Source: an uncultured Candidatus Saccharibacteria bacterium (GTDB lineage Bacteria > Patescibacteriota > Dojkabacteria > J137 > JAEUSD01). Taken from it: a DNA stretch of 61,117 nucleotides. Positions 497-23,997 of this stretch are shown here, piece after piece. The position numbers and the translations under genes were made by a program. Position 1 is the first letter of the stretch; every line of letters starts with the position of its first letter. Location: positions 4,450 to 65,566 of the forward strand of contig CAYUPY010000001.1 in assembly GCA_964446595.1 (NCBI GenBank), written 5' to 3'. Under the pieces are notes generated by a model that saw only the letters and a program-made list of their open reading frames with translations, was not told the origin of the DNA and ran no database searches.

Positions 497-514
497 TGCG
501 TTGACCTATTTATA

Positions 515-2650: not shown

Positions 2651-2653
2651 CAG

Positions 2654-2665
2654 AACATTATAGCA
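2654..2665 (-). promoter_or_regulatory. extended -10 promoter (TGCTATAAT) 6 nt upstream of the uvrB ATG; possible leaderless transcript
   Basis: Minus strand reads TGCTATAAT-GTTCTG-ATG. No SD sequence is present. Confidence 0.4.
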
Positions 2666-2669
2666 GAAC

Positions 2670-2695
2670 GATGGCGCCGCGAACGCGGCGCCATC
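2670..2695 (-). terminator. GC-rich perfect palindrome directly after the stop of ORF 2696..3448
   Basis: GATGGCGCCGCG-AA-CGCGGCGCCATC, with 12-nt arms. No U-tract follows. Confidence 0.4.
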
Positions 2696-3448: not shown

Positions 3449-3514
3449 TAATGTTAATTTGAATATTTTTAAGCATGAGCGATGATAGCAGAAATATTAC
3501 GAATATATCTCAAA

Positions 3515-5338
3515 CTAACCTTCGTTTTCCCAATAAATAGGAGAAAGATTAAATGCTGTATGGAAAATCTGCATCTCCATCTGACGTACCAGCTGCTGCC
3601 TGGCTTCATTTACCTCGGAATCACTGGCAGTAGAGGAAATGCTTACCTCACTTTTGAATTCAGATTGTTTATCAAAAATAAATAGTACGGATTTTGCCTC
3701 AATTAAATCGGGCTTCGTCCTCATAGTACTTACTATTTTCTTCCAACTTGAAAACTTGAGAATATCTATTTTACGGAGTAAGTTAGCAGTTTGTGCACGT
3801 GCTCTTGAATCGGAAGCTAGCCATGCAAAGCACTCCTGACGCAATCTTACAAAATCTTGCAATAAGAATAAACTCGAACAAGTGATTAGATCTACTGCCT
3901 TATCTTCGTTCCAGGGTTCAATACCTGAACCCAACGAATCTAAATCTACGGCTTGGCGCATGCCGGAAGCTACTGAACTTGCTAAGTAGACGAGTCCTTT
4001 TAGTCTTCTTGTACGAAAAGACTTACCAAATAGTGTATACGGAGGGGTCCAGTATCTCTGCTTTCCTTCTTTAATTACCTCCCTAATGGGTTGCCCATCT
4101 AAAAATTGCAGGATTATTCGTTGCTGAAATTCTTCGCCCTTACCAAATTTATTCAGTCGGATTGCTATCTGATTTAAAAAACAAGTTTCAAAATAATTAA
4201 AATCCTGAGTAAGTGCAACCTTATGTAAAAAGGAAAGTGCTAACTCCATCAGAGTTTCAGCTGGAATATTTCGCTCGGGGTTATCCCTAAAATCGCTCTG
4301 CAGGTATTTTAAAGCTTGGTAAAGGATCTGGTCATGATAACCATTATTTAGGAGAGCTATGATCTCAGTAGCTAGTTCTTCTTGATAATATTGCTGACCT
4401 TTTATTTTAGATTTTATTTCTCTCAATCTTATTGCTGCTAAGATATGCTGCAAATTATGTTCCTCTATAAGGGCTAAGCCATTCTGACGCAAATACTCCT
4501 GGGTTAGATTTAGGGCTGCCGTTGGGTTACGCCAAAAATTAGTAAATGCACTATAACTATTAAGCCCAAAAAACTTTCTACTAACTAGCCAGGGAAGCGA
4601 ACTATTAGTGTCACTATCATCTAAACGAATAGCATTCACATTTATCTGATAGACCAGCGGGGTTCCGTGCTGCTGGAGAGCAAGAGTGAGCAAATAGTTA
4701 GCTAAGGTATACTTTAAGGCCAACTGCTCGAGAGGCTGGTTAATTTGCCGCACATTATGCGCTCTGTCAAAAACTTGTTCCGATAATAAATAAGATAACC
4801 GCTGCATGGTAAGTCTTTGATTCTCTGCAATTGCTTTTCCAAGCTCTCCATCTGCATTTATACCGTAAGTGCCATCTAGACTCACATTAGCAACAACTCT
4901 TACTGGGACCAGGTCTATCTTTACATCATTCAGTGGCTGAATATCCTCTAGGTCAATACCATTCCCCTGCAGTAATGAGGAGCCGCCTGAAAAGGCGGCT
5001 CTGATGCGCAAACAGTTCATCCTTCTACCAAGATCTAGAGAGAGTTGGTGTCGGTCTTTGGGATCATAACCCGCAAGTCTGTACATCGGATAATCGCTTT
5101 TTAGGATTTCTGCAATCGTAGTCTCGGATGGGTTTGCCAGGGATTCAAATACTCCCAGAATCCCTGCTCCGTTATCTGATATAGATTGTGCAGGCAGGAA
5201 AAGTTCGACTACTAACCTACCTTCATTATCTACACTATAAAGAACTGCTTGCTCTCTGATCCTGGTACCAGCAGAATCATAGATAGCCAGGGGGAATTCT
5301 CCAGTACTTAAGTGTTCTGGTGTTTGAAATAACTCCAT
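3515..5338 (-). CDS. hypothetical protein (607 aa), no recognisable motif
   Basis: 1.8-kb uninterrupted ORF. No Walker, nuclease or TM signatures seen. Confidence 0.6.
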   Translation of the reverse strand: MELFQTPEHLSTGEFPLAIYDSAGTRIREQAVLYSVDNEGRLVVELFLPAQSISDNGAGILGVFESLANPSETTIAEILKSDYPMYRLAGYDPKDRHQLSLDLGRRMNCLRIRAAFSGGSSLLQGNGIDLEDIQPLNDVKIDLVPVRVVANVSLDGTYGINADGELGKAIAENQRLTMQRLSYLLSEQVFDRAHNVRQINQPLEQLALKYTLANYLLTLALQQHGTPLVYQINVNAIRLDDSDTNSSLPWLVSRKFFGLNSYSAFTNFWRNPTAALNLTQEYLRQNGLALIEEHNLQHILAAIRLREIKSKIKGQQYYQEELATEIIALLNNGYHDQILYQALKYLQSDFRDNPERNIPAETLMELALSFLHKVALTQDFNYFETCFLNQIAIRLNKFGKGEEFQQRIILQFLDGQPIREVIKEGKQRYWTPPYTLFGKSFRTRRLKGLVYLASSVASGMRQAVDLDSLGSGIEPWNEDKAVDLITCSSLFLLQDFVRLRQECFAWLASDSRARAQTANLLRKIDILKFSSWKKIVSTMRTKPDLIEAKSVLFIFDKQSEFKSEVSISSTASDSEVNEARQQLVRQMEMQIFHTAFNLSPIYWENEG

Positions 5339-5372
5339 AGCAACTCCAATGTAAATTTCATGTAAGTTTTTG

Positions 5373-6005
5373 TTATTTATACTTGTCTAGGAAGAATTCT
5401 TCCCAGACAGCACCTTTATATTGAGGCTTTCGTGCTGTTAGTAAGTTACGCCCCAATAGAATCAATCTTAAGCTGGTTGGCCCCCATTCATCTCTAGGAA
5501 ATAACCCTTCTAGATCCGTGGCAATTTTATCCGGATTAGTTTTATCCGTAAGCCCAAACCATGTAGCGAGCCTCTTTACATGAGTATCCACCGTAAATCC
5601 TTCATTCTTTCGATACCATTGCCATAGGACCACACTGGCTGTTTTCTTTGCCACTCCTGGAAGGGTAAGTAATTCTGACATGGTGTCCGGTACGCCGCCG
5701 CCATAATCTTTCATAATCTTGGCGGCGGCGGCTTGAATATTTTTCGCTTTATTATTATAGAAACCGCAAGATTTAATAATATTTTTTAACTCCTCTATGT
5801 CAGAATTGGCGTAATCAGCTATAGTTTTGTATCTTGCGAACAGGGCAGGGGTAATCTGATTCACGCGCGCGTCAGTACATTGCGCAGACAGTATTGTCGC
5901 AAATAACAGCTCATGCGCGCTAGAATGATGTAACGGTACTTCAATTTTTGGGAAAGCTTTCTTTAGTTCATACAAAACTCGATCAGCCTTTTCTTGTAAT
6001 TTCAT
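5373..6005 (-). CDS. nth: endonuclease III-family HhH-GPD DNA glycosylase lacking the C-terminal 4-Cys Fe-S loop
   Basis: HhH motif LPGVAKKTASVVL with the catalytic Lys, and VDTHVKRL with the catalytic Asp. The C-terminus (GRNLLTARKPQYKGAVWEEFF) contains no Cys. Confidence 0.88.
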   Translation of the reverse strand: MKLQEKADRVLYELKKAFPKIEVPLHHSSAHELLFATILSAQCTDARVNQITPALFARYKTIADYANSDIEELKNIIKSCGFYNNKAKNIQAAAAKIMKDYGGGVPDTMSELLTLPGVAKKTASVVLWQWYRKNEGFTVDTHVKRLATWFGLTDKTNPDKIATDLEGLFPRDEWGPTSLRLILLGRNLLTARKPQYKGAVWEEFFLDKYK

Positions 6006-6022
6006 TACCTATCTTATCAGCT

Positions 6023-6520
6023 TTAAGCCTCTTGTGCGTTTGCACGATCATTAAGAATATCAATGGCTAAATTATAATAATAAACAAAACTTTCATGCTC
6101 ATTACTATTTATCGCACTCCAGATGCATAGCAATGCATCCTGAAACTTAAACTCCTTTGCCGAAATACGAGATAAGGTTGTATTGCGAGACAGTGCGGCC
6201 CTGATAATAAAAAGGTAATAGATAGTGAGGGCCACTTCATACATCTGCTCATCATTTAGCATTTCTGCGTCTGATATTTTCACTGGCAGCGCTGCGATTA
6301 TCATTTTGGCAAATCTCTCCCATACTTCAAAGTGACCATGGCTTCCTTCAAAATTCGGCTTAATATCTCTTACCACTTCATACATCTTTTGCAGCTCTGT
6401 CCATGCTGTTCTAGCACTTTTGCTCGTAATTTCTGACTGGGGAATAGCTCTTTTGTTTATAATGTTATGCCCATCCAAATGAGCGACTACTTCAGGCAGT
6501 GTAATGTCAAATTGCAACAT
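6023..6520 (-). CDS. hypothetical protein (165 aa)
   Basis: ORF ends 17 nt upstream of the nth start and is co-directional with it. No motif recognised. Confidence 0.5.
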   Translation of the reverse strand: MLQFDITLPEVVAHLDGHNIINKRAIPQSEITSKSARTAWTELQKMYEVVRDIKPNFEGSHGHFEVWERFAKMIIAALPVKISDAEMLNDEQMYEVALTIYYLFIIRAALSRNTTLSRISAKEFKFQDALLCIWSAINSNEHESFVYYYNLAIDILNDRANAQEA

Positions 6521-6639
6521 ATTCGTTATATACTAAAATATACTTCTGGCAATTATAACGAAGTTTTGTAGAACCTATCACAAAAATTTCACAAACCAAG
6601 TTGAAAAACTTCACAAAAGCGGTAGATAAAGCTATTATC

Positions 6640-6805
6640 TTTACAAGAAACTCTAGACATGTCTGAAAGCTAGAGAAAGTCGATCTAGTAGGCCAAGTCT
6701 AGAAACCCTTACAAACAAAACTTATTCGAGAACCAAATAGGTTGGTACCTCGGGCAAAGCCCGGCCTTAGTTGATTTTATACGTCAACTATGGTCGGGCT
6801 TTTTT
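6640..6805 (+). promoter_or_regulatory. T-box leader (tRNA-sensing riboswitch) with intrinsic terminator, upstream of proS
   Basis: T-box 14-mer AGGUUGGUACCUCG at 6739-6752 matches the consensus AGGGUGGNACCGCG at 12 of 14 positions. The UGGU bulge complements ACCA. Stem I helix is 6652-6658 paired with 6697-6703, followed by AACCCUU (a Pro CCC/CCU triplet at 6706-6709). Terminator is 6756-6766 paired with 6792-6802, followed by a U-run. A possible promoter is TTGAAA at 6601 with a -10 near 6623. Confidence 0.65.
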
Positions 6806-6827
6806 AGTATTTATTAGTTGTAAACAA

Positions 6828-8534
6828 ATGAGACATTCACAATTATTTACAAAATCACAAAAACTGGCAAAAGAATACGAGTCAAAAAATGCCACTTTGT
6901 TAATTAAAGCCGGCTTTATAGATCAGGTAATGGCGGGTGTATATACTTACTTACCGCTAGGGCTGCGTGTGCTGCGTAAAATTGAAGACATAGTAAGAGC
7001 GGAAATGAATAAAGTCGCAAACGAAATGCTTTTTTCGGCCCTATCCCCTCGTGAGTTATGGGAAACCACGCAAAGATTAGACACCGTAGATGTTTTAATG
7101 AGGGTTACCCCTGCAAATGAGGCTTCTGAAAAACGTAATGCAGCAGACTTCATTTTAAACTCTACTCAAGAAGAGTTGGCAACACCGCTGGCACAGAAAT
7201 ACACACTTAGCTATAAGAGCTTGCCATTAGCTTTTTATCAAATACAGTCAAAATTTCGTAATGAACCTAGACCAAAATCCGGACTGATGCGCGGTCGTGA
7301 GTTTGTCATGAAGGACGGCTATAGCTTCCATACTAGTCAGGAAGATTTAATGGATTACTACGAAAAGATGAAAGATGTATATAAGAGGATATATGAAAGA
7401 CTAGGTATTGGTGAACAAACGGTAATTGCACTGGCTTCTGGTGGTGATTTTACCAAGGACTATTCTCACGAGTTTCAGACGCGTTCGGAAACAGGAGAGG
7501 ACACTATCTTTTACGATAGAAAAGAAGATGTTTACTACAACAAAGAAGTAACACCAAGCCAAGCTCCTGCAGTTAGTTACAGTGACACTGTAGAACTTGA
7601 AATGAAGGAGGTAAAAGGTGAAGGTATTATTGGGGTAGAAGAATTAGCAGAGTTCTTAAATATCGACGTTGAGCGTACAACTAAGACTTTACTATTTAAA
7701 GTAGATGAAAAAGAATTTGTGGCAGCTGCGGTAAGAGGTGGTTATGAAATTGATGAAGAAAAGTTAAAAAAGGTTTTGGACTGTAGTGTCTTAGTGATGG
7801 CTACCCCAGAGGAAGTTCTAGAAATTACCGGTACTATCCCAGGCTATGTAGGACTGTTAAATCTACCTGAGTCGGTTAGGGTGGTGGTTGATGAGTCGTG
7901 CAATAACCGCCTTAACTTTGAAATCGGGGCCAATAAAGAAAATTATCATTCAGTTAATGTTAATTGGGGAAGAGATTTGCAGAGACCAACTGAGTTCTTT
8001 GATATCAAAGTCGCTAAAGAGGGTGACTTAAACCCTAAAACCGGGGAAGTATATGAGGTATTTAAAGCCTCTGAGGTCGGAAATATTTTCCCTTTAAACG
8101 TGAAATTCTCACATGCTTTTGACTATAGCTACACTGATGAGAATGGTGAAAAACAAGATGTTTACATGGGTAGTTATGGCTTAGGGCCTAGCAGAGTCAT
8201 GGGTGTAATTGCGGAAATCCTAAATGATGAGAATGGATTGGTCTGGCCACGCAATATTGCCCCATTCCAAGTCTACCTAATCTCTATTGGTGCAGATACA
8301 GAAAGTCTTGAGGTGTATGAAAAACTGACAACTGCTGGTATAGAAGTGTTATTTGATGATCGTGATCTACGGCCAGGAGAAAAATTTGGAGATGCTGATT
8401 TGTATGGAATTCCTTACAGGGTTGTAATAAGCTCCAAAACATTAAAAGATAATAAGGCTGAGCTTAAACCACGGAACTCAGATAACGTTGAGATGATAGA
8501 CATTAACCAGTTGGAAAAGAGATTAAGAAGCTAG
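6828..8534 (+). CDS. proS: proline--tRNA ligase, bacterial type with INS editing domain
   Basis: Class II motifs (FRNEPRPKSGLMRGREF), a YbaK-like insertion, and a C-terminal anticodon-binding domain. The ATG at 6828 is preferred because the listed start at 6771 lies inside the leader terminator. Confidence 0.95.
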   Translation: MRHSQLFTKSQKLAKEYESKNATLLIKAGFIDQVMAGVYTYLPLGLRVLRKIEDIVRAEMNKVANEMLFSALSPRELWETTQRLDTVDVLMRVTPANEASEKRNAADFILNSTQEELATPLAQKYTLSYKSLPLAFYQIQSKFRNEPRPKSGLMRGREFVMKDGYSFHTSQEDLMDYYEKMKDVYKRIYERLGIGEQTVIALASGGDFTKDYSHEFQTRSETGEDTIFYDRKEDVYYNKEVTPSQAPAVSYSDTVELEMKEVKGEGIIGVEELAEFLNIDVERTTKTLLFKVDEKEFVAAAVRGGYEIDEEKLKKVLDCSVLVMATPEEVLEITGTIPGYVGLLNLPESVRVVVDESCNNRLNFEIGANKENYHSVNVNWGRDLQRPTEFFDIKVAKEGDLNPKTGEVYEVFKASEVGNIFPLNVKFSHAFDYSYTDENGEKQDVYMGSYGLGPSRVMGVIAEILNDENGLVWPRNIAPFQVYLISIGADTESLEVYEKLTTAGIEVLFDDRDLRPGEKFGDADLYGIPYRVVISSKTLKDNKAELKPRNSDNVEMIDINQLEKRLRS

Positions 8535-8548
8535 TCTGATTTTTATCG

Positions 8549-9193
8549 TCAGTTACCGTAAACATTTGTGTCTATGTAGTCCTGGATACGTTCATCGCCT
8601 GTCTCTAAAAAGATAACCTCATCCAGGTCTACGCTATATCCCTCTAAAAGCTGTGTGGCCTCAACTCTGGCACCGGGATTGCTATATTGGACCAAGTAGT
8701 TATATTGTTTATCTGGCTCTAATTTTTCTATGGTAAAAGTTGCCTCCCAAATTGGCAGGATTTCGTCGATGCTGCTCACTGTAGGATTAGGAGTATAGAT
8801 ATCACTTCTCCCTCTTTCACCTTCTTGTTCTCTAATGCCAGTAGGGTAAAATAAAACGCTGCCTGCCACCAATTCTTGATAGCTAATACCTATTTTATCC
8901 GCGTAGCTCCTTAAAGTAGCCTCTACTGCTACTGGATCATCTGTATCAAAGTAAAAGACCAACTTATTACCATCAATAGCAATTGAGGTACCAGGATCGT
9001 TAATTACTGCTAGATTTTCGGTGATGTATTCCTGGCCACCAGTTGCCTTCTCTAACACATTTTCTCTGGCTTGTTCTTGAGCAGAACGGCTTAGCAATGA
9101 AATCAAACCGACCATTACCAGCATGAAGACCATTAAAACTACTGCTACCAAAGTAAAGTTTAAGCTTTTTAGGAATGTGACAAGTTTCTTCAT
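8549..9193 (-). CDS. membrane-anchored hypothetical protein (214 aa), immediately downstream of the giant gene
   Basis: N-terminal TM segment (LVAVVLMVFMLVMVGLISLL). A 3-nt gap to the stop of 9197..15421 suggests co-transcription. Confidence 0.6.
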   Translation of the reverse strand: MKKLVTFLKSLNFTLVAVVLMVFMLVMVGLISLLSRSAQEQARENVLEKATGGQEYITENLAVINDPGTSIAIDGNKLVFYFDTDDPVAVEATLRSYADKIGISYQELVAGSVLFYPTGIREQEGERGRSDIYTPNPTVSSIDEILPIWEATFTIEKLEPDKQYNYLVQYSNPGARVEATQLLEGYSVDLDEVIFLETGDERIQDYIDTNVYGN

Positions 9194-9196
9194 AAT

Positions 9197-9739
9197 TTAA
9201 TATCTCGGACTATATTTATTATAACCCCTACCTTCAAAATCTCCTCTTAACAGACTACAGTAGACTGATCCAGCAGAAGTAGCACAACTTCCATAGTATC
9301 TTCTTCCTGATTCGTAGCGCTGCTCAGGGGTTGAATTTACACTCATACCTGGCACGCGATCCTTAATTAAGTTCATTGCTCCACAAATTGCGTTACCGAT
9401 GTGCGCCGGGCAGATGTTTTGGCCTGGTTGATTGACGGAGACACCTAACTGCTCGGCGCAACTCAGCACTTTATTATATGCATGGCCCGAGGCGGAAAAG
9501 TACTCAAAAATTGTACCGGCTTGTAAAGTTTTGTCTGGACAGAACTGACCAGGTCCCACACAACTCAGACTGTTTACGAGTTCTTTATACTGATTAGGAT
9601 TACCTCCATAGATAGTGGCAATATCAAAACTAGGAGGTTGATTTACGCCAGCATACTCCACTTCAATAATTGAGTTAATTAGGCCGGGATCCACGCCTAC
9701 GATATTGGCCGCACTAGCAATCATTTCCGTTAAGCTACT
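9197..9739 (-). other. divergent lytic transglycosylase / lysozyme-like C-terminal module of the giant protein
   Basis: AANIVGVDPGLINSIIEVEYAG (Glu1922) resembles the SLT catalytic motif (..ES..). A Cys-rich tail follows. Confidence 0.4.
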
Positions 9740-12700
9740 GTAGTTATTATTCGGTGAAGCATTGGCATTACCAGGTAAACAATTAAATACACTTAAAATA
9801 GGTGCATTACTTCCCGGAGGGGTTTCGGTCTCAGGAACTTTACAAACCAATGGACCTTCTTGCTCTGTTGGTTGAATTGACACACTGCCAGAACATCCAT
9901 TGTTGCCATCATTTGAGCCACAACCAAGCGCGTTAGAGAAAGCCATCATATCAATAGAGCGCCCAGGGCTTGTGTTGTCTGTAAATTCCATGTGAATATG
10001 GCGTTTGTTATCCGGGTCCGTCTGCACACTTTTACATGTGGTGGAGTTCACATTTTTACCATCAATCGTGCGATCCCCAATGCGGGACATGACACTAATC
10101 TTTTGACCTTTTCTAAATTGCTGACCCTCATTTACAATTCTATTACCACTTTCATCTACTAGTTTTACATGATAGAACAGCATTGTGACTGTCTGTCCAT
10201 TAACTTCACCCTCGAAGAAAAGCCCATCTCCAGCATGAAAAGGCCTATTGCCCGAAGAATCCGCCCTACAATAGTTACCTATTAAACTTTTAACACGCCC
10301 ATCAAATGGAGCGATTAAATCATATGATACGGTAGAGGAGACTAAGTCCACGGCATTCATATTAGTAACATTCCCATTTTCATCAACACGAGTGTGGGAA
10401 AAAGTACCGGTAGGCCCTTGGATACAATAACCGGCTGGCACAGGACAAACGCCGACTGTGCCTAACACTGGATCTGTGCCAGCCTCAGTGTCTGAGCCAC
10501 CACTTCCGTCACTACCTAAATCTACGCCTAGAAACTGATATCGCCAGCGGGGACCAGTTTCTCCTGGTCGCCCTGGCCAGTAGACTGTTCCGTCTTCTAA
10601 AAGCTTTCCTTGATCCACATTCTCATTGTAACCGCCAGCCGAATACATCTGAGATGAACCACCCCCGTCAAGAGCTAACGCATAGTCCAATCCTAAGCTT
10701 CGAGAGATATTGATCATTCCAACCAAATCAGCAGCATTAACTACCACAAACACAAAGTTGCTACCTCCTGACTTCCATCCTACTATTGTTCTAGGCGAGA
10801 AATCGTTTGAAATACCCCGATAAGCGTCTATTTGGTCTGCGGGCACTGCCTGTTGGCCATTAGCTACTAATAAAGGCACTCCTGTAACTGCAAACTCGGA
10901 AATTGAGTTAATATAGTTGCGTTTTTGCAAATTGAAGTCCGAGGAAGCTTGTACATCTACGATTGCAAAATCCCCGGCAACGGCAATAATATTTCTACTG
11001 GGATCCGGCCCCGAAACGGAGCCGTCATGTTTGATTAAAGCATGCTCGATTCCACGCGGAGTATCGTTATAGCTCACATCTCCTTGCCCTCCAAAGATTC
11101 CTTCAGGGGCATTAATGTAAGCTGCAAAGTTGGTGTTTATTGCAATGTCTATGCCATAATCGCTAGCAAAGTTAGTGATTTTTACCTGAGAACTAGCTTG
11201 AGAAGCAGGTATCGCCTTAAATTCGACACCACTGGTAGGAAATTCTGCTACTACACCTGTAAAGCCTGATACCTTCTCTTGAAGTGCAGAAATGTATTCA
11301 CTACTGCCAGGGCTTGGGTTAAGCGGAGAATTACCACCATTTTCGGGAGTATTACCAAGCTCAGGATAAGTACACTGAAGAGAGCAGACCTCACTGGTGA
11401 CGTTATATCCTTTCTCACACAAATATATCCCGAGATTACTTTCCTGGAAACCTGCTGACCCAGGGTCGGCGTAAGGAGCAATACAATTTTCTTTGCCAAC
11501 CAAGTTATTCGGTAACTCCTCGCAAGGTAAGTATCCCAAATTAGCCATTGCCACATCCAATGGTACAGTAGGCTCGGCAATTAGAAGCTGATCAAGCTTA
11601 TGTAACTCATCAAACCAACCTAGCTGCTCGTAGTACTGATACTCACGCAAAAAGTTATCCACTTCGGTTAGGTACATATTGTAATTTTCAAAATATGTAC
11701 CAGGAATACCAATATCATTACCACCACCAACGCGAGAACCACCATCCACTGGACGAGTAGCATCACAGTTTTGCTCTAAGGCAAGTGCACCTTTATCTGA
11801 AAGTGAGAAACTCTCCCAAGCCGTATTAGCATTAGTCCAATTGAAACCTAGAGCGAATAATACTTTTTCATCCGCCAAAAGCTCCCCTACCACCCGGCTA
11901 CTTTGGGCCGGGTCCCTGCTACCTTGTTCAAGCGCTACAGCAACACCAGTCTCCGTAATACAGAAATCCATATCGCCTAGTCCAGGAATGCCTTTTATGG
12001 CAGATAACCTATCACCTACAGGCACCCCACCGTCTTCGTATATATTCGCTGCTACACATACAAAATCACTAGCAATACTACTTGCCCCATACGCGTTTAC
12101 GAATTCAGTAATATTATCTACAAAAGTATCTACCCCGTCGTTATAAGTACCATTAAACGCAGGAGTGGTGATCTTAACTTCATTGCTACCATTTAAATTG
12201 GAGCGTAAAGTAGAGGCACAGCTCTTAGCCCAGGAAGCTTCTTGGGCCATCGTACCCTCAAAATCCGTTTTTGGTTCATTGTGTCCGCAGGAAACATATA
12301 TTTCGCTGCCACAATTTACCTGATTAATAATGCTGGCTATGTATCTACCTTGCTCAGTACCTGAACTAAAACCACATCTACCTCTCACACATGAGCCTAG
12401 TACTGGAATAAGTGCCCCACCTTCTGGACTACACATACTATTTAGCGTTCGCACTACGCCATCGACTGTCTCTGAGGTGCCGTCAACAGCGTTCGGGCCA
12501 TGTAAAATCACATGTCCGTAGCCGTAACCTTTGCCCTCACCATTTAAGTTCGCGGCTTCACTAATTTGATCATCATTCAATCCGCTAGCGTATATTCCAA
12601 ACTTCAGCCCCACACGACAAGCATTAGTTGAAGAGTCACTTGCGGCGCCGGCAACCACGCCGGTGCCGCTTGCCGGCGCCGGCGTACTGTAAGCAGTTAC

Positions 12701-15421
12701 ATCAGGTTCTGGTACATTAATACCACCAAAATCATAAGTCTCTAAGAAATTATTCTCACGTGCTCCATCAATTGCCCGTGGTTTAAACCACGGCGGAACA
12801 GAGTAAGCCTTCACAGACACATCAGCTTCCCAGCCTAAATTTCGATTTGCTACTAACCTTAAGTTTAACGAAGACAATCGACGCTGCACTCTACTGTAAA
12901 GAGCATAAAGTGAATCATATGCTCCTTCAATGTTGTAACGAGGTAAAGAATCGAACCCTGCTTTCACAAAAAAGTCAGATTCTTCATATGAGTCAAGACT
13001 ATCAACTCCCTCCCCGCCTCGATAACGTACACACTGACCACCATTTACTACCTCTTGTGTTGTTTGACAACCGTTGCGAATAGCAGTGCTATCCCCGATT
13101 GCACGTCTATCAGGGTTGCCTTCATAGTTACGGTTATCAGTTTGGCCATCTAGGTTAGCATCGTAATAACATGGACAAACCGTAGCGTTGCCAGCGTTGG
13201 CTGTTAGTTCATATATTTGTTTAGAAGAAAATAGACTTCCCCCATTACGTGTGCGGTGTTGATATTCCTCCCAAGCCAATTGGTTAGCACCTTTAGCAAA
13301 AACGCGCGTTTCTTCCAGAATCATCTCTGAACCATAAATCATATTCTGGGGGTTACGGGATACGTGAGTAATCGGAGATGGCACATCTGTCTTAATCCGC
13401 GTATCAGCTGTATAGTCAAGTTGATTAAAGTTAGTAATACCTTCAATATCGTCTATAAAGTATTTACTGACACACACATCGCGCCCAATACATAAAGCAA
13501 ATTCATCTAGCACATTTGTTGGCGCCTGGCTGTCAGGGGACCACGCTGCTGCATATTGAAATTTATCATCCTCAGCTTCAGTTTCAGCTAAAGTATTTGC
13601 AACTGTAGCTCCCCCAAACTGTACATTAGCTTCACCACTGGCGAAATGTGAATTAATATCTATAGGATCGGCTGGAGCGGTGGTATTCGTATAATCGGGG
13701 AAATGGGCATTCAAACATGTATGTAACCATGGCAGCATATAACGATTTGCATCAACATCCTCTGCATATACACCCTCACTAGTAAGACCAGTTGTGGAAA
13801 GTCTTCCCGCGTTCTGGTTCATGTAATCAAGCGGAACCTGATAACGCTTAGTAGCCGCAATAGCTGGTGGGGTATAGGGCATACTGTCGGTGCCTAACGG
13901 TGAATTACTACCACAATGCTTAACCGGTAATCCAACCTTCACAGTATATCGCACAACTGCTTCACAAAATCCGCCTTCTCCCCCAGCAGTCTGACCAGAA
14001 CATACTACTCGAGTTAAGGCCTCTGCCTGATTGGGACGCTTAGTAAGTGGAGTAGTGGCAGCTACTTTGGCAAATGAACGTTCGTCGTAATCCATACCAT
14101 AATCCACAATGTCATAATTACAGTTAGTGCCCTCTAGAACCAAGCGCTGTAAGTTAACCGGGCCTGCGAAAATGTCGTCCATTGCATCTGACATAATCAC
14201 TCCAGCAATACGTGGATCATCGCTGAGTTCACCATAACTGTAAGCCAACCTTTCTTTTAGGATATTGTTGTCGATTCTCTGACCGTTTTTAAACTTTGTA
14301 TCCCCATTTGCTGACTGGTCTGCGGGGCCAAAGTCACCCACAATCACTCTTTGTACAATACCGTTCTCTTCGTAGTTTCTGATTAAATCATTCAGAAAAT
14401 TCTGCTGATACGCAAACAGTGGACGTCTTTCTAAATCTGAATTGTCCTGATCCACAGGCGCTGTTTGTCCCTCCTGAGTTACCTGAGTAAACTTAAAATT
14501 CACATCAAAGTCTTCCCAGTTAATAAAATAGAAATCAAAGAGTAAGGGGGTAACATCAAACTCACTGGTACTATTACCAAAAGCAAACATTCTATCGGCA
14601 AAAACCTTTAACTGATCATTAATTTTAATACAAGAACTCTCATCATCGGAGCCACCACACTGACGACTTTCGTACAACATAGGAGTAGTAGTTGCTACAT
14701 CTTCTTTCTCTTCGTGGTCAAACAATGCATTACCAACCTCAGCCATCTGGGTACCAATAAACTGGCCCGCGCTAGGCACGCCTAGCGCGGCCTTGTTCTG
14801 GTTTGCTAACTGAAAATCTATGGCTAGCGTGGCAATAAACTTACTGTCAGCTGTCCGTTCGTTAAGCTGATTGTAGAAATTGATTAAAGCTTCTGTGTTA
14901 AAAAAGTCAGTATCACCTGAAGTACCCACCCGAATAATAGGCTTTAAATTCTCGCGACGAGCTGATTTCACAAAGTCAACTGCCTTTGGCAACTCACTAG
15001 ATTTATTAAAGACGCCTACAACGTAACTCATGCCGATACTAGAGTACTCAATCATTCTGACGTTACGTCCGTTTGCGTCGAGACTAATGGTTGAGGCATT
15101 AGGATGCACGTCCCCTAATTTATTCTGACAGCGATGATAATTGTCCGAAATATAGCTATGACGGTTATAAAAGTTTTCATCTTCAGGATCAATTTCTTGC
15201 GAGGTTAGCTGCACACTTATGTCTCCCAGACTAAAGTTGGAAGCTGGCGGCGCTGCCATATTGCCAAATAAGGCCAGCGCCGCCACAAAAAACACACCCG
15301 TAACCACTGTCTTAGCCGTCCTCCCTAATTGAAGACCGGAAGCATCTAGCACATCTTCTCCCTCAAGCAAATCAATCATTGTCTGGCCGATACCTTTTTG
15401 TTTAAACTTTCCGCGAAACAT
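9197..15421 (-). CDS. giant (2074 aa) membrane-anchored, Cys-rich surface protein with several glycan and peptidoglycan hydrolase-like modules
   Basis: 6.2-kb uninterrupted ORF with an N-terminal TM segment (VVTGVFFVAALALFGNMAA). Module motifs are listed as separate features. Confidence 0.85.
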   Translation of the reverse strand: MFRGKFKQKGIGQTMIDLLEGEDVLDASGLQLGRTAKTVVTGVFFVAALALFGNMAAPPASNFSLGDISVQLTSQEIDPEDENFYNRHSYISDNYHRCQNKLGDVHPNASTISLDANGRNVRMIEYSSIGMSYVVGVFNKSSELPKAVDFVKSARRENLKPIIRVGTSGDTDFFNTEALINFYNQLNERTADSKFIATLAIDFQLANQNKAALGVPSAGQFIGTQMAEVGNALFDHEEKEDVATTTPMLYESRQCGGSDDESSCIKINDQLKVFADRMFAFGNSTSEFDVTPLLFDFYFINWEDFDVNFKFTQVTQEGQTAPVDQDNSDLERRPLFAYQQNFLNDLIRNYEENGIVQRVIVGDFGPADQSANGDTKFKNGQRIDNNILKERLAYSYGELSDDPRIAGVIMSDAMDDIFAGPVNLQRLVLEGTNCNYDIVDYGMDYDERSFAKVAATTPLTKRPNQAEALTRVVCSGQTAGGEGGFCEAVVRYTVKVGLPVKHCGSNSPLGTDSMPYTPPAIAATKRYQVPLDYMNQNAGRLSTTGLTSEGVYAEDVDANRYMLPWLHTCLNAHFPDYTNTTAPADPIDINSHFASGEANVQFGGATVANTLAETEAEDDKFQYAAAWSPDSQAPTNVLDEFALCIGRDVCVSKYFIDDIEGITNFNQLDYTADTRIKTDVPSPITHVSRNPQNMIYGSEMILEETRVFAKGANQLAWEEYQHRTRNGGSLFSSKQIYELTANAGNATVCPCYYDANLDGQTDNRNYEGNPDRRAIGDSTAIRNGCQTTQEVVNGGQCVRYRGGEGVDSLDSYEESDFFVKAGFDSLPRYNIEGAYDSLYALYSRVQRRLSSLNLRLVANRNLGWEADVSVKAYSVPPWFKPRAIDGARENNFLETYDFGGINVPEPDVTAYSTPAPASGTGVVAGAASDSSTNACRVGLKFGIYASGLNDDQISEAANLNGEGKGYGYGHVILHGPNAVDGTSETVDGVVRTLNSMCSPEGGALIPVLGSCVRGRCGFSSGTEQGRYIASIINQVNCGSEIYVSCGHNEPKTDFEGTMAQEASWAKSCASTLRSNLNGSNEVKITTPAFNGTYNDGVDTFVDNITEFVNAYGASSIASDFVCVAANIYEDGGVPVGDRLSAIKGIPGLGDMDFCITETGVAVALEQGSRDPAQSSRVVGELLADEKVLFALGFNWTNANTAWESFSLSDKGALALEQNCDATRPVDGGSRVGGGNDIGIPGTYFENYNMYLTEVDNFLREYQYYEQLGWFDELHKLDQLLIAEPTVPLDVAMANLGYLPCEELPNNLVGKENCIAPYADPGSAGFQESNLGIYLCEKGYNVTSEVCSLQCTYPELGNTPENGGNSPLNPSPGSSEYISALQEKVSGFTGVVAEFPTSGVEFKAIPASQASSQVKITNFASDYGIDIAINTNFAAYINAPEGIFGGQGDVSYNDTPRGIEHALIKHDGSVSGPDPSRNIIAVAGDFAIVDVQASSDFNLQKRNYINSISEFAVTGVPLLVANGQQAVPADQIDAYRGISNDFSPRTIVGWKSGGSNFVFVVVNAADLVGMINISRSLGLDYALALDGGGSSQMYSAGGYNENVDQGKLLEDGTVYWPGRPGETGPRWRYQFLGVDLGSDGSGGSDTEAGTDPVLGTVGVCPVPAGYCIQGPTGTFSHTRVDENGNVTNMNAVDLVSSTVSYDLIAPFDGRVKSLIGNYCRADSSGNRPFHAGDGLFFEGEVNGQTVTMLFYHVKLVDESGNRIVNEGQQFRKGQKISVMSRIGDRTIDGKNVNSTTCKSVQTDPDNKRHIHMEFTDNTSPGRSIDMMAFSNALGCGSNDGNNGCSGSVSIQPTEQEGPLVCKVPETETPPGSNAPILSVFNCLPGNANASPNNNYSSLTEMIASAANIVGVDPGLINSIIEVEYAGVNQPPSFDIATIYGGNPNQYKELVNSLSCVGPGQFCPDKTLQAGTIFEYFSASGHAYNKVLSCAEQLGVSVNQPGQNICPAHIGNAICGAMNLIKDRVPGMSVNSTPEQRYESGRRYYGSCATSAGSVYCSLLRGDFEGRGYNKYSPRY
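9962..10354 (-). other. M23/LytM-type metallopeptidase module of the giant protein
   Basis: FHAGDG (His1729, Asp1732; HxxxD) and HIHMEF (His1808, His1810; HxH). Confidence 0.65.
10622..11227 (-). other. phosphodiester glycosidase (NAGPA/DUF2233)-like module of the giant protein
   Basis: ALALDGGGSSQMY signature (Asp1585), preceded by a region of about 190 aa. Confidence 0.5.
11762..12634 (-). other. clan GH-A-like TIM-barrel glycosidase module of the giant protein
   Basis: CGHNEP (Glu1049) and FCITETG (Glu1157) lie 108 residues apart. This is the acid/base and nucleophile pattern of clan GH-A. Confidence 0.45.
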
Positions 15422-15493
15422 AGAAGTTAACTTTCTGTATAGTTTACTAGAAAACTAACTTAAAGCCTAAAACTTTGATAAGATATTTGTGAA

Positions 15494-16183
15494 ATGCTGC
15501 AATTATCACACTTTGGATCCGCTAAACCTTTTAGCTGGACTAATAAGCATCTAGTACAATTGTTAACACAAGGTAAAAACCCTGTGTTGACTGACCCTTT
15601 TATTATAAATGCTTTTCGTAAAATCGACCGCGGTGACTTTCTTCCAGAAAGTCACCGCGAACTGGCCTACCATGATCGCTTAATCAATATCGGATTTGGA
15701 CAAGTGAGCACAAATCCTACATTGGTTGCCCGTAAACTACAGATTCTTAATCCCAAATTTGGAGGCCGCTATTTGCATATTGGTACGGGTATGGGGTACT
15801 TTGCAACTCTGCTGAGCTTTCTAATTGGGGACACTGGCACAGTCTACTCTATGGAACGTAATCAATGGTTGTGGGAAGAGGCGCGTAAACGCAGTACGCC
15901 ATATCGGGAAAAAGACAATCTTGATCTACAAATACTTTATCGCAATGGCAGCGATGGACTCCCTCAAAAAGCACCATTCGATGGGATCATATTCTCTTTT
16001 GTCCCAAATGAATTTCCCCGACACATGCTAGAGCAACTAGCAGTTGGGGGTATGATGATGCTTCCTACACCACAACACACACTTCATATTGTGACCCGCT
16101 CCAATATTAATAACTTTGAAGAGGAAGTGCTTACTGGATTTAACGCCTACGCGTACGGCAAACAAGAACTAGGGATTGACTAA
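15494..16183 (+). CDS. pcm: protein-L-isoaspartate O-methyltransferase family protein
   Basis: RGDFLPE, QVSTNPTLVARKLQ, and the SAM motif YLHIGTGMGYFATLL. Confidence 0.8.
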   Translation: MLQLSHFGSAKPFSWTNKHLVQLLTQGKNPVLTDPFIINAFRKIDRGDFLPESHRELAYHDRLINIGFGQVSTNPTLVARKLQILNPKFGGRYLHIGTGMGYFATLLSFLIGDTGTVYSMERNQWLWEEARKRSTPYREKDNLDLQILYRNGSDGLPQKAPFDGIIFSFVPNEFPRHMLEQLAVGGMMMLPTPQHTLHIVTRSNINNFEEEVLTGFNAYAYGKQELGID

Positions 16184-16348
16184 GTTTCTTAAGCCCGATT
16201 ACACTTTTAAGCCTGATTAGCAGAAGAATCATAACGGGCCAAATGTGATAGTGCCTTTAATTTCCCATTAGACTTTCAAAGAGATACAAAACTCGTAAAT
16301 ACCAGTAAGCTTTTTGCACTTGCATATTGTCAGATAACGCATTAAAAT

Positions 16349-16375
16349 TTAGCAGTATCATTAATTGAGTGCTAA
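16349..16375 (+). promoter_or_regulatory. CIRCE-like inverted repeat (HrcA operator type)
   Basis: TTAGCAGTA-N9-GAGTGCTAA against the consensus TTAGCACTC-N9-GAGTGCTAA. The right arm is perfect and the left arm matches 7 of 9. It ends 7 nt before the clpC ATG. Confidence 0.6.
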
Positions 16376-16382
16376 AAACTAT

Positions 16383-18902
16383 ATGCAACTATCGGATCTA
16401 TTTTCAGAAAGAACTAATCGGGCACTACAAGAAGCGGCCCAATTTGCTGTGGAACACGGTCAACGAAGTATTGATACCGAACATATCCTATACGGGTTAG
16501 CCCAAGATGGAAGCGTAATGCAGAGGATATTTAAGGAACTAGATATAGAAGTAGCGGAGCTACTTACTCAGGTTGGAAATCTTGTGGCGCGTGGTGGTGT
16601 GCAAGGTACAACTCCGAGACTTAGTCCACGCGCCGCTCAAGCAATTCAACTTGCATATGAAGAAGCTTTGGATTTAAAACACAAATATATTGGAACTGAG
16701 CATTTGTTTTTAGGCTTACTGTTGGAAGGCGAAGGCTTAGCTGCCCAGCTTTTGCGTAAATCTGGAGTTACCCAAGCGAAGGCTCGTGATGCAGTAGTTA
16801 AAGTAGTAGGAGAGGGTGGACTTAAAGGAGAGGGCGAGGAAGTAGCAACAGGTGAAAGCCAGACTCCTACCCTAGACCAGTTCGCTAAGGATTTAACAGA
16901 TTTCGCTGCTCAAAATAAAATAGACCCTGTAATTGGCCGTAGCGATGAGATTACACGCGTAATTGAGATTTTGTCCAGACGCAAAAAGAATAATCCTGTA
17001 TTAATAGGAGAGCCAGGTGTAGGAAAAACCGCAATCGTAGAAGGGTTGGCTGTCCGGATTCAGAGTGGAAATGTACCAGACATACTAAAAGGTAAAAGAA
17101 TCAAAGCTCTGGATTTGGGGATGTTGTTAGCTGGTTCAAAGTATCGGGGAGAATTCGAAGAAAGGGCCAAAAAAATGATAGACGAGGTAGAACAAAGTGA
17201 CCGTAAAATCATTTTATTTATTGATGAGTTGCATACGATTGTTGGGTCTGGCGCGCGCGAGGGCGAGCTAGATCTTTCCAACATGCTAAAACCCGCCCTA
17301 GCGCGCGGCGGCATGCAAATCATTGGTGCTACTACCCTTAGTGAATACCAGAAATACATTGAAAAAGATGCCGCTTTAGAGCGTCGCTTTCAACCAGTCA
17401 TTGTAGATGAACCCACAGTAGATGAGACAATTCAAATCCTTCAAGGGATTAAGGAACGCTACGAGGCTCACCATAAATTGAAGATCAAAGACTCCGCCTT
17501 AAAAGCAGCGGCCAATCTAGCCGATCGCTATATTAAAGACCGTTTTATGCCAGACAAGGCAATTGACGTTATTGATGAGGCAGCTAGTCGCGTTAGATTG
17601 CGATTTACTAGTGAACCGGAGGAGATTTCTAAGCTACGTGTAGAAATTAAGAAACTGGAGACTGAAAGAGAAGCCTTAACAAGAGCAAATATGCACAAGG
17701 AAGCTGCAGAAACTAAAGTAGAAATCGAAAAACTCAAAGAACAACTTGAACCTATGCTAGAGGAGCTAGCCAGAGAACGAGGTACTGACACACCCGAGGT
17801 GCGGGTACATGATGTACAGGAAGTAATCTCTAGAATGACAGGCGTTCCAGTTACTGATCTTACAACTCAAGACGAATCTGACTTGGCAAATCTAGAAAAG
17901 CGCTTACATGAGCGCATTATTGGTCAAGATGAGGCTGTTACATTAGTCGCACAAGCCGTGCGCAGAGCTCGAGTAGGACTTAAGGACCCTAAGAGGCCTA
18001 TCGCCAGCTTTCTATTCTTAGGACCTACTGGTGTTGGAAAAACCGAGCTAGCAAAGGCTTTGGCAGAGACCGTATTTGGTGATGAGAACAATATCATCCG
18101 TCTAGATATGAGTGAATACATGGAAAAGTTTGCAGTTTCGCGCCTAATTGGCTCTCCACCAGGCTATGTTGGCTTTGAAGAGGGTGGACAATTAACTGAA
18201 CAGGTAAGGCGTAAGCCTTACTCATTAATCCTGCTAGATGAACTTGAAAAAGCTCATGCTGACGTATTTAATATCCTACTCCAAGTAATGGAAGATGGAA
18301 GATTAACAGATAGCAAAGGACGAGTGGTCGACTTCCGTAATACCATTATCATTGCCACCAGCAATCTGGGATCTGAGGTGATTTTAGAATTCTTACAAAA
18401 GCAAGATGAAGAACGTGTCGCTGCCGCAGATACTAATCAACCAGAAACAACTGAGACGGAAACTAAATACATTAAAACTAAGCCGGCCACTTCTCAAAAC
18501 GGTGATAGTATTATGAATAGCTGGAATAATCTTAAAACAGCTATTTTAAAAGTGTTGCAAAAGGCTTTCCGTCCTGAATTTGTAAACCGTTTCGATGAGA
18601 TAGTCATGTTTAAAGCACTTAGCATGGAGCAAATGGAAGGTATTGTTAAACTAATGCTTGATCGTACTGTTGAAATGCTTGCGGCACGTGACATCCAATT
18701 AGAAATCACAACGGATGCCGTAAAACATCTAGCTGCTATCAGTTATGATCCCGAGTTCGGAGCTCGCCCTGCACGTCGAACTATTCAACGTGAGGTAGAA
18801 AACAAACTTACCGAAAAGATTATTGCCGATGAAGTAAATGCAGGCGATAAGCTAAAACTCTCAGCACCTGAAGGCAACCTAACAATAGAGAAGATAACCT
18901 AA
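16383..18902 (+). CDS. clpC: ATP-dependent Clp/Hsp100 chaperone, ClpC-type (two Clp_N repeats, two AAA+ modules, short middle domain)
   Basis: Walker A motifs GEPGVGKTA and GPTGVGKTE, and a middle domain of about 65 aa. The ATG at 16383 is preferred over the TTG at 16365. Confidence 0.9.
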
Positions 18903-20176
18903 TCGTGCACAGCATTTTCAGCTGCTATCTTGCCATAGACGAGCGCACTCTGCCGCAGAGTGCGCTCTTGCGTCTCCCGATTTACGCTCGCCAACCCAAA
19001 CCTGGGCCACCAACCCTTATCCCACTCAAAATTGTCCATCAATGACCAGTGGAAATACCCTCTTACAGCTGCACCTTCCGCAATAGCGCCTTGTAGGCTA
19101 CGTAATGACTCTAAAATAAACCAAGCTCTATTTTTATCATCTGCATCCGCCAATCCGTGTTCTGTAATATAGACAGGCTTTTTCATATCCTGGTAAGCAT
19201 CTAGGGCCACGATACCTAAGCCTTGAGGATACAGTTCCCAACCTAAGTCGGACATATACTCAAAATTGTGTTCCATCCCTTTTTTAAACTTAAATCGGAA
19301 ATAATGATTAAGTGCCACAAAATCAAAACTACCATGTACGAGGTTTATAAAATAATGGTTTAGGAGGTAATCATATACTCCAGCCAATAAGTGCCCTTTC
19401 AGCCCAATACCAGGACGGCGTTGCACTAGGGCTATATTATCCACCACTGAAACCTGAAAGCGATGATCTACTGATTTGATTGCATAGTAAGCTTCTTGGT
19501 GAGCTTTGGCCATTCTGTTCAAGGCCCTGTAAAACTCAAATAAGTGCCAATGCCGCGTAGGTGGCACACCACCAACAACGTAAAACATTACTGCATACTG
19601 CACGGGTTCATTGAGGGTCATCCAGAATTTCACTAAGTCTTTGTATTCTGAAGTCACCCGCTTGGCATAGCGCACAAATAGCTTAATTGCATCCTTTTGC
19701 AGCCAGCCACCATTTGCTGAAAACCAACGGGGCAAGGTGTAATGATTTAGTGTCACAAAAGGTTCAATCCCTCTGTCACGGAGAGCCTTAATCATTAAGC
19801 GATAATGATCTATTGCTTTTTGATCAAAAACCCCAGGCTCCGGTTCAATCCTTGCCCAAGAAATAGAGAATCTGTAAGCATTTAAGTTTATTTCCTTAAG
19901 AAGATCAAAGTCTTGTTCATATAATTGAAGGTGATTTACACCCTCGCCAGAAATATAGTTTCCGGGATTTTCAGCTTCTTTACGAAATCTCTCCCATTCT
20001 GGAGGCATAGCGCCCACAATAGATGCTTGATTGCGAATACGTTTTTCTGCAGTCACAGCTAAAGCGTCAGCTTCCTGATGTTCCCATTCACTCCAATCAT
20101 CAACGGTATTTCCTTCAACTTGGTGATCAGAAGTCGCTGCCCCCCAGAAAAAACCCTCTGGAAATTCTAATTTCAT
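18899..20176 (-). CDS. glycoside hydrolase family 1 beta-glucosidase
   Basis: FPEGFFWGAATSDHQVEG, acid/base TLNEP, nucleophile region YITEHG, and WSLMDNFEW. Confidence 0.9.
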   Translation of the reverse strand: MKLEFPEGFFWGAATSDHQVEGNTVDDWSEWEHQEADALAVTAEKRIRNQASIVGAMPPEWERFRKEAENPGNYISGEGVNHLQLYEQDFDLLKEINLNAYRFSISWARIEPEPGVFDQKAIDHYRLMIKALRDRGIEPFVTLNHYTLPRWFSANGGWLQKDAIKLFVRYAKRVTSEYKDLVKFWMTLNEPVQYAVMFYVVGGVPPTRHWHLFEFYRALNRMAKAHQEAYYAIKSVDHRFQVSVVDNIALVQRRPGIGLKGHLLAGVYDYLLNHYFINLVHGSFDFVALNHYFRFKFKKGMEHNFEYMSDLGWELYPQGLGIVALDAYQDMKKPVYITEHGLADADDKNRAWFILESLRSLQGAIAEGAAVRGYFHWSLMDNFEWDKGWWPRFGLASVNRETQERTLRQSALVYGKIAAENAVHD

Positions 20177-20224
20177 ATCCCATTATTACATGAAAGTGAT
20201 AACATTTCATGAAGGAGCAAAAAT

Positions 20225-23936: not shown

Positions 23937-23997
23937 TTTGGAGTAAGTTTAAAATCAAAATGAGTATATCACCACCTCAAATTCTTGGCTCTAAAAA

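Follow-up and report, generated by a model that had tools for sequence, protein, structure and literature searches.

What does a single membrane-anchored protein of 2074 amino acids (aa), carrying several modules that resemble cell wall hydrolases, do at the surface of a bacterium, and on whose wall would it act? This question is raised by a stretch of 61,117 nucleotides from an uncultured Candidatus Saccharibacteria bacterium (assembly GCA_964446595.1, contig CAYUPY010000001.1, positions 4,450 to 65,566; the whole stretch is hereafter the window). The gene in question lies at 9197..15421 on the minus strand, and its product is here called the giant. Based on family profiles and structure models, the giant is probably an extracytoplasmic multi-module wall hydrolase, to which we assign a probability of about 0.8. 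An earlier reading of the letters without database searches (the original prediction) had come to a wall hydrolase as well. The present analysis supports that interpretation, and the profile searches on which it had staked its M23 and NAGPA modules did not refute it.

Gene integrity and topology

The list of open reading frames (ORFs) and the translation give one unbroken reading frame of 2074 aa. A hydropathy scan of the whole protein places its sole hydrophobic segment at aa 38-58, after Arg and Lys residues, and no second stretch resembling a transmembrane (TM) helix was found beyond it. The single uninterrupted ORF with an N-terminal TM anchor is thus borne out. The predicted topology is N-in, C-out, a type-II anchor, so about 2000 aa of the giant would lie outside the membrane. 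The giant contains 44 Cys residues, or 2.12% of its sequence. This is a five-fold enrichment over the remaining 40 ORFs of the window (0.42%) and agrees with the unusual Cys richness noticed before. Since there is one N-terminal anchor and Cys is enriched to this degree, an extracytoplasmic location is indicated. All six motifs quoted in the original prediction were found where it had placed them, namely NEP at 1048 (E1049), ITETG at 1155 (E1157, 108 residues on), LDGGGSSQMY at 1584, FHAGD at 1728, HIHMEF at 1808 and IIEVEYAG at 1918.

Such an ORF might be an assembly chimera or an error-made fusion of several genes, and a frameshift does split the gene in one homologous locus. In L003, a Logan assembly, the giant (L003:329-6320) is divided into an overlapping 1600-aa ORF and a 407-aa M23 ORF. 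Nevertheless, the same gene is intact in L008, a JGI contig (L008:55-6099), where it encodes 2014 aa (…TQPWGGELEHSGTDW…), so that the split in L003 is an artefact of a one-base frameshift rather than a gene fission. The ORF of the window is unbroken and its GC content is even along 9197..15421. Collinear giant homologues of 1500-2450 aa are present in independent assemblies (P0002, P0003 and P0006-P0066), and the module order is the same in collinear proteins of 1750-2085 aa from independent assemblies. Because of these homologues, the even GC content and a gene order that recurs between loci, a chimeric origin is unlikely. Chimerism or frameshifts had been named beforehand as what would count against the ORF; the evidence points the other way, and an artefact carries almost no weight as an explanation.

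NAGPA module

NAGPA was the only family found with the giant alone or in segments, in searches of Pfam, NCBIfam and PDB sequences. The PF09992 match covers aa 1459-1600; its scores of 55.2 and 57.4 bits (E 1.3e-14 and 2.7e-15) are well above the cut-off of 25. Eight further family members possess the module; the three of them that were scanned with Pfam all match PF09992, and DGGGS is also present in the other NAGPA modules of the family. According to the passages cited here of a 2026 structural study of human NAGPA, DGGGS is strictly invariant, including in bacterial homologues, and its loop binds N-acetylglucosamine (GlcNAc)-1-phosphate and holds the catalytic Asp (PMC13474241). With a match above cut-off and DGGGS in place, the phosphodiester-glycosidase-like module read from LDGGGSSQMY holds, and by family membership it is confirmed as NAGPA-type, a putative GlcNAc-1-phosphodiester glycosidase. 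A wall-polymer linkage unit may be its substrate. The module shares the profile match and the DGGGS loop with the NAGPA 'uncovering enzyme' and with bacterial DUF2233 proteins (PF09992). However, the copy in the giant is one module of a bacterial surface protein, with no EGF stalk or propeptide evident.

M23 module

The next module is a variant of the M23 (LytM-type) metallopeptidases. The structure model of aa 1640-2074, built from the 33-row alignment A9, has a mean predicted local distance difference test (pLDDT) score of 83. With this model, ranks 1-5 of the Foldseek search in PDB were all M23 enzymes at a probability of 0.97-1.00, namely LysTt72 (8s3m, E 2.4e-4), phi29 gp13 (3csq, two chains), Csd1-Csd2 (5j1l) and lysostaphin (4lxc). 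The top matches in BFVD were phage Peptidase M23 proteins (E 3e-7), and among the fold matches are lysins from phages of Microbacterium, Gordonia and Arthrobacter. The A9 profile (33 sequences) matched solved M23 structures too, with E 1.5e-5 for the lytic endopeptidase 8s3m and E 2.4e-5 for the Peptidase M23 9gy1, and more weakly LECT2 (E 0.016) and 5kqb (E 0.018). Small profiles of two to four sequences, made from the M23-like, glycoside hydrolase (GH) and C-terminal modules, gave nothing significant against PDB, and the canonical M23 gene of L003 likewise showed no significant similarity when compared pairwise. Within the family the module is shared with P0004 (31% identity, E 2e-26) and with 28 other members. 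By profile and model, the M23 identity of the module is confirmed.

The residues C1659, C1666, H1676, D1692, H1751, H1808 and H1810 are invariant in 21/21 M23 modules. Like the peptidases of family M23 (LytM, lysostaphin, Csd1/Csd2, LysTt72), the module possesses the common fold, the Asp of HxxxD (D1692), the catalytic His after the beta strand (H1751) and the HxH motif, where H1808 and H1810 align with HLHFE of the solved enzymes. Unlike them, it never has the HxxxD His, carries an invariant H1676 upstream and scores below the Pfam threshold. Because the HxxxD His is never present while H1676, D1692, H1751, H1808 and H1810 are invariant, we describe the module as a domain of M23 fold whose metal site is a variant. 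H1676 belongs to a C-P-x5-C-x-Q-G-P-x-G-x2-S-H segment, 16 residues upstream of D1692, and may replace the missing canonical zinc-binding His. For the peptidase module read from the letters, the fold, the family profile and the HxH motif (HIHMEF) are in agreement, whereas FHAGD is rejected as the HxxxD zinc motif, its His (H1729) being conserved in only 2/21 modules.

C-terminal module

The C-terminal domain was confidently modelled as all-alpha, with pLDDT 90-98. The module is present in 25 other family members, several of which carry a canonical-looking xES...GPMQF...RKYYGAC. Invariant in the C-terminal modules are E1922, G1956-P-x-Q1959 (GPGQ in the giant) and Y2043-G-x-C2046. A sub-significant alignment with 3gxk (E 0.08) puts E1922 on the catalytic-Glu helix of goose lysozyme. 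Pfam could not detect a soluble lytic transglycosylase (SLT) domain in the giant or in ten relatives. The SLT-like C-terminus that had been proposed is only suggestive: the region is Cys-rich, IIEVEYAG is present and E1922 is invariant, but GH23 matches reach only E 0.08-1.4 and no fold match is significant. From profile and model, we put a GH23/lysozyme-like identity at roughly two chances in three.

GH-A-type barrels and conserved scaffold

The original prediction had recognised no motif in the first ~900 aa. Instead, this part of the giant comprises a degenerate barrel of clan GH-A and a conserved core of ~430 aa. For aa 60-935, an AlphaFold2 model based on 30 family sequences has a mean pLDDT of 69 and a predicted TM-score (pTM) of 0.75, and aa ~90-430 are modelled as an alternating beta/alpha domain with pLDDT mostly 80-94. 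The best Foldseek matches of this model in PDB were GH5 mannanases (3wh9, E 2e-4), CelC (1cec) and GH128 (6uax), with ~370-400 columns aligned and TM-scores, normalised to target length, of 0.4-0.5.

In a distant subfamily of the giants, which has no second barrel, the strand-4 motif of the N-terminal barrel is GPNEP and the strand-7 motif (I/L)TEFG. The giant of the window has TLAIDF in place of GPNEP and VGDFGP in place of TEFG; across its clade (P0001-P0018) the former site reads TLAIDF or TSAPRA and the latter VGDFGP or VNYGP. Since the motifs of both strands are replaced, both catalytic glutamates are gone from this barrel, which appears catalytically degenerate throughout the clade.

A second barrel of GH-A type follows the core. 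In alignment A8, the motifs CGHNEP and C(I/V)xETG of this barrel do not vary among the six other second barrels included. An un-iterated profile of 13 second-barrel modules, run against a set of 66 sequences, matched the N-terminal barrels of the distant subfamily with E down to 5e-19, and in this match NEP aligns with NEP and ETG with EFG. The orthologue P0003 possesses at the same position a Pfam Glyco_hydro_cc (PF11790) module (E 2.5e-7) with WNEP and WITEF. Neither barrel of the giant matches any Pfam GH family or has a PDB sequence match, and the A8 profile was uninformative against PDB. The second barrel is thus supported indirectly as an intact-looking GH-A glycanase, with E1049 as the predicted acid/base and E1157 as the predicted nucleophile. 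It seems to be a paralogue of the family's ancestral catalytic barrel that took over catalysis in this clade. The GH-A module of the original prediction is sustained by its NEP and ETG motifs and by homology to the family barrels, but it has no GH family match, and the GH5 and GH128 fold matches come from the model of the N-terminal barrel. Like the enzymes of clan GH-A (GH5 mannanases and cellulases, GH128, Glyco_hydro_cc), the giant has a (beta/alpha)8 barrel by the model of its N-terminal barrel, and in its second barrel, where this fold is predicted by homology, it has the NEP and Glu that those enzymes carry at strands 4 and 7. It differs in having two barrels in a single chain, of which the first has lost both catalytic motifs.

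When P0019-P0043 are compared, the catalytic motifs of the N-terminal barrel are lost in the clade with the second barrel and kept in the clade without it. It appears that the barrel was duplicated and that catalysis then passed to the second copy while the N-terminal copy decayed.

The best-conserved stretch of the family is the core at aa ~445-870. Its motifs are VGLPxxxxGSNSxxGTD, PWLG, DPQNxIYGSE and GWEA together with several invariant Cys, and GTNCNYD lies just upstream. No Pfam, NCBIfam or PDB sequence match was found for the core, and the matches in the fold search of aa 60-935 covered the barrel and not the core. A further conserved module, here called post, has the signature YLxEGxNW..YYxxLGxxDEL...C..DPLGxFLCxxGY.V...C and was detected by an iterated profile in 61/65 family representatives. 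The coordinates of these features are collected in Table 1.

Table 1. Position of the giant, its modules and other features within the window, and the evidence for each.
Feature	Position	Strand	Evidence
Whole gene: type-II anchored (predicted), Cys-rich giant, 2074 aa	9197..15421	-	ORF list and translation; collinear giant homologues
Basic cytoplasmic tail and TM helix aa 38-58 (aa 1-58; predicted)	15248..15421	-	Hydropathy scan; homologues with the same N-terminal anchor
N-terminal (beta/alpha)8 barrel, clan GH-A fold (aa ~90-430)	14132..15154	-	AlphaFold2 model, Foldseek, family alignment
Family-defining conserved core (aa 445-870)	12812..14089	-	Profile positions 372-795 in 60+ representatives
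Second GH-A-type barrel, CGHNEP (E1049) and CITETG (E1157) (aa 935-1235)	11717..12619	-	Family profile, motif alignment
Conserved post module (aa 1235-1375)	11297..11719	-	Iterated profile, alignments; nearly all family members
NAGPA / phosphodiester-glycosidase module, DGGGS D1585-S1589 (aa 1379-1640)	10502..11287	-	Pfam PF09992
Variant M23 (LytM-type) metallopeptidase module (aa 1655-1835)	9917..10459	-	AlphaFold2 model, Foldseek, BFVD, family profile
All-alpha, Cys-rich C-terminal module, possibly GH23/SLT-like (aa 1880-2074)	9200..9784	-	AlphaFold2 model, family alignment
Single-pass membrane protein, 214 aa	8549..9193	-	3 nt downstream of the giant; N-terminal hydrophobic helix
ORFs with no Pfam match	3515..5338, 2696..3448, 6023..6520, 20646..21191, 23998..24879	all -	Pfam, E <= 1e-5

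Catalysis or binding

Several results weigh against reading the giant as a set of active wall enzymes. The second barrel itself matches no CAZy-type Pfam family, and its link to GH-A is one of sequence homology. Scanned in segments with Pfam at E <= 10, the proposed GH and SLT regions yielded no match. The M23 module has no PF01551 match, in the whole protein or in segments, even at E <= 10; the homologous modules of P0061, P0046, P0038 and the L003 gene also fall short of its cut-off of 28.7 bits, at 17-28.5 bits. The position of the canonical HxxxD His (M1688) is M, L, G or A in the 21 modules, and never His. As the module is missed by Pfam and this His is absent, M23 catalysis is not assured. 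For the C-terminal module, the best PDB matches of a 17-sequence profile lie below threshold, with goose-type lysozymes at E 0.08 (3gxk) and 0.8 (3wyh) and phiKZ gp144 at E 1.3-1.4. Foldseek with the model of aa 1640-2074 gave for it only FlgJ in PDB (E 5.5) and an LT_GEWL phage protein in BFVD (E 0.11, probability 0.51).

The giant could be an adhesin or surface scaffold, whose enzyme-like modules now bind carbohydrate or peptide of a host wall without cutting. The loss of both catalytic Glu motifs from the N-terminal barrel of the clade fits this explanation, as does the M23 module without the canonical first His, with the non-catalytic M23 fold LECT2 among its profile matches. Moreover, giant proteins of Candidate Phyla Radiation (CPR) bacteria are, in the passages cited here, usually read as attachment factors (PMC8080830). 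Nevertheless, NEP and ETG are kept in the second barrels of all 13 relatives and DGGGS is intact; the five His and Asp of the M23 module are invariant in 21/21 modules, and in the C-terminal module E1922 and GPxQ do not vary. Residues of catalytic type that are so conserved argue for chemistry rather than binding alone, and we consider an adhesin quite improbable. The wall hydrolase is the reading followed below.

Family composition and module exchange

A family profile was made from the first ~860 residues of three giants and used in an exhaustive search of 1.84 billion cluster representatives. It detected 65 proteins at E <= 1e-3, 62 of them at E <= 1e-10, and nearly all are 1200-2450 aa long. 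A word-indexed search of 5.8 billion proteins gave only the giants P0002 (2023 aa) and P0003 (1600 aa) and the fragment P0004. Locus scans of genomes and metagenomes gave one and two further loci only, because the search patterns were narrow, and with its narrow pattern the scan of species-representative genomes had one match, a Candidatus Saccharibacteria metagenome-assembled genome (L004). No description of this giant family was found in the literature searched. By these searches, the family is rare and previously undescribed.

The modules are unevenly distributed among the members. The second GH-type module is present in 13 close relatives, the NAGPA module in 9 members, the M23-like module in 29 and the C-terminal module in 26. 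When ten members were scanned with Pfam, further wall hydrolases appeared, namely VanY in P0027, Peptidase_M15_4 in P0046, canonical M23 in P0056, Amidase_2 and GDSL in P0061, GDSL in P0002 and Glyco_hydro_cc in P0003. Because the module census varies in this way, the family can be described as a conserved scaffold with exchangeable wall hydrolase modules. SGNH/GDSL esterase domains are inserted mid-core in P0002 (aa 580-737) and between the N-terminal barrel and the core in P0061 (aa 499-653), and the scaffold thus tolerates large insertions.

The identity between loci is 65-71% for ClpB and 46-55% for PCMT, the products of neighbouring genes, and only 23-34% for the giant. In P0038 (L005, GCA_034680565.1), the pair of M23 and C-terminal modules is 34% identical to that of the window over 473 aa, and the core 23%. 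As the pair is closer to the giant of the window than the core of the same protein, module exchange is suggested. Together these identities suggest that the giant diverges fast and exchanges cassettes between distant lineages.

Gene order and the small partner gene

The order ClpB and/or PCMT (divergent), giant and small gene is found in the window, in L001/L002 (a 1.13-Mb contig), and in L005, L006 and L007, and this synteny holds in every related locus with a readable upstream flank. In L004, ORFs of the size of ClpB and PCMT come first and the contig then ends within the giant, after its start. The sequences of L003 and L008 open with the giant itself, and there the giant, the small gene and ProRS are seen. 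Downstream are ProRS, HhH-GPD and UvrB, or SecA.

The small gene is present in 7/7 loci with a readable region, and its start often overlaps the stop of the giant. The original prediction had asked whether the 214-aa gene recurs next to homologues of the giant; in each of the seven related loci examined, the giant is followed by a small anchored gene. The small genes of the window, L001/L002, L003/L008, L005, L006 and L007 share an N-terminal M.K...FLK..F and a TM helix. Beyond the N-terminus their similarity is weak, with 18% identity in one comparison and 19-20 bits in another.

The ProRS gene of the window (6771..8534, plus strand) is of the bacterial type with an editing domain, encodes 587 aa and is convergent with the giant operon. 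The ProRS genes at L001:16705-18141 and L003:7242-8684 are of a 478-480-aa type with a ProRS-C_1 domain and are co-directional, and a co-directional ORF of 477 aa occupies the ProRS position in L007 (L007:13980-15413). In all of these loci ProRS adjoins the small gene; its position is kept between loci, whereas its gene type and orientation are replaced.

Host wall or own wall

We propose that the giant would be displayed, membrane-anchored and disulfide-rich, outside the cell of a Saccharibacteria-like bacterium (Patescibacteria/CPR). The family scaffold, consisting of the degenerate GH-A barrel, the 430-aa core and the post module, would carry a cassette of wall-cutting enzymes. In the giant of the window, this cassette would comprise a GH-A glycanase barrel, a NAGPA-type glycosidase, a variant M23 zinc endopeptidase and a probable lysozyme- or lytic-transglycosylase-like domain. 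The predicted cuts are in wall polysaccharide, in the sugar-phosphate linkers that join wall polymers to peptidoglycan, in peptide cross-links and perhaps in the glycan backbone. From the sequences we infer that the modules are active, on these substrates. Their use would be to breach or harvest locally the wall of the host cell under the epibiont, and the small membrane protein, co-transcribed, would be a partner or regulator of the giant. For this whole account, from the surface display of a wall-degrading scaffold and cassette to the small partner, we see the odds as even.

The host wall is favoured as a target because the giant has diverged far more quickly than the neighbouring genes, with a cassette that changes between orthologues, and because some fold matches are lysins of phages that infect Actinobacteria. 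GlcNAc-1-P phosphodiesterases and GH5/GH128-like barrels suit Gram-positive wall polysaccharides and linkage units and, to our knowledge, are not ordinary autolysin parts. These modules accord better with a target in such polymers and linkage units than with routine autolysis. What has been published on the giants and hydrolases of the CPR, in the passages cited here, leans to the same side (PMC8080830).

However, the membrane anchor puts the enzymes beside the bacterium's own wall, and housekeeping synteny together with an apparent single copy per locus fits an autolysin equally well. The giant may thus unite the hydrolases with which a reduced genome enlarges and splits its own peptidoglycan and turns over its own wall polymers, under control of the small partner. 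The synteny with ClpB, PCMT, ProRS, SecA and UvrB in six or more divergent loci and the proximity to the own wall are in agreement with such a housekeeping role. M23, VanY, Amidase_2 and lytic-transglycosylase-like modules are classic hydrolases of growth and division, and by analogy the conserved small membrane partner recalls known pairs of regulator and hydrolase. Against this role stand the fast divergence of the giant relative to its neighbours and the turnover of modules between orthologues; GH5/GH128-like barrels, SGNH and NAGPA modules are unusual for autolysins, and no link to division genes was found in the loci seen. A housekeeping autolysin is, in our judgement, rather unlikely, and we give the host wall as the main target an even chance.

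A bolder extension of the host-directed account is doubtful, and we offer it tentatively. The giants could be a lineage-wide 'wall drill' of Saccharibacteria-like epibionts, in which the scaffold of barrel, core and post would be a machine of a new kind. It would present at the host contact an exchangeable cassette, drawn from M23 variant, NAGPA, GH-A, VanY/M15, amidase, SGNH and lysozyme-like modules, that is matched to the wall chemotype and helps to set the host range. The small protein would gate or neutralise the giant, and the active site of the M23 module would be a new variant, with the role of the HxxxD His passing to a His of an N-terminal, disulfide-braced loop.

Relation to known systems

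Multi-module wall hydrolases are well known, among them phage LysA-type lysins, phi29 gp13 and staphylococcal autolysins. Like the giant, the LysA-type endolysins of actinobacteriophages and phi29 gp13 (3csq), a tail enzyme with a lysozyme-like and an M23 domain, combine M23 with another wall hydrolase domain in one chain. In the LysA-type lysins modules are shuffled between relatives, as in the giant family. In contrast, phage lysins are soluble or virion-borne and 250-550 aa long (the matched lysin of Gordonia phage GMA6 has ~1,090 aa), whereas the giant is chromosomal, anchored and of 2074 aa. Its scaffold of ~1300 aa (barrel, core and post) has no counterpart in phage lysins, and its GH-A and NAGPA modules are also extra.

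For giant surface proteins and secreted peptidoglycan hydrolases of the CPR, an action on host walls has already been proposed (PMC8080830). In the passages cited here, CPR epibionts such as Vampirococcus lugosii are likewise ultrasmall episymbionts with very large anchored surface proteins, and with wall hydrolases proposed to act against the host (PMC8080830). That account describes giants with interaction domains and, separately, hydrolases (PMC8080830), whereas here both are fused on a conserved syntenic scaffold. What appears to be new is a family with a scaffold of ~1300 aa without known relatives. Two GH-A barrels in one chain, one of them decayed, an M23 site without the canonical His, and the constant pairing of the giant with a small anchored protein likewise appear to be new.

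Other features of the window

Beyond ClpB, the window encodes a GH1 glycosidase (18899..20176, minus strand, E 5e-73) and an AcrB/RND-type transporter (21192..23936, minus strand, E 1e-102). An RND pump is unexpected in a presumed monoderm with a reduced genome. For five ORFs, of 165-607 aa, Pfam gave nothing at E <= 1e-5 (Table 1), and the one of 607 aa sits between UvrB and HhH-GPD. The tRNA and Rfam scans of 1..61117 could not detect a tRNA gene or any Rfam family at gathering score.

Implications for episymbiotic Patescibacteria

The locus defines both a conserved core and post sequence without known relatives and an M23 active site of a variant type. Should the giant act on the own wall of the cell, it would be a case in which a reduced genome consolidates its autolysins into one protein. 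How ultrasmall episymbionts open or feed on thick Gram-positive host walls is a wider question, and for it the locus offers a candidate that can be traced in genomes. If it is true that the cassette tracks host wall chemistry, the family would allow the host range of uncultured Patescibacteria to be approached from sequence, and lytic enzymes directed at Actinobacteria could also be drawn from it.

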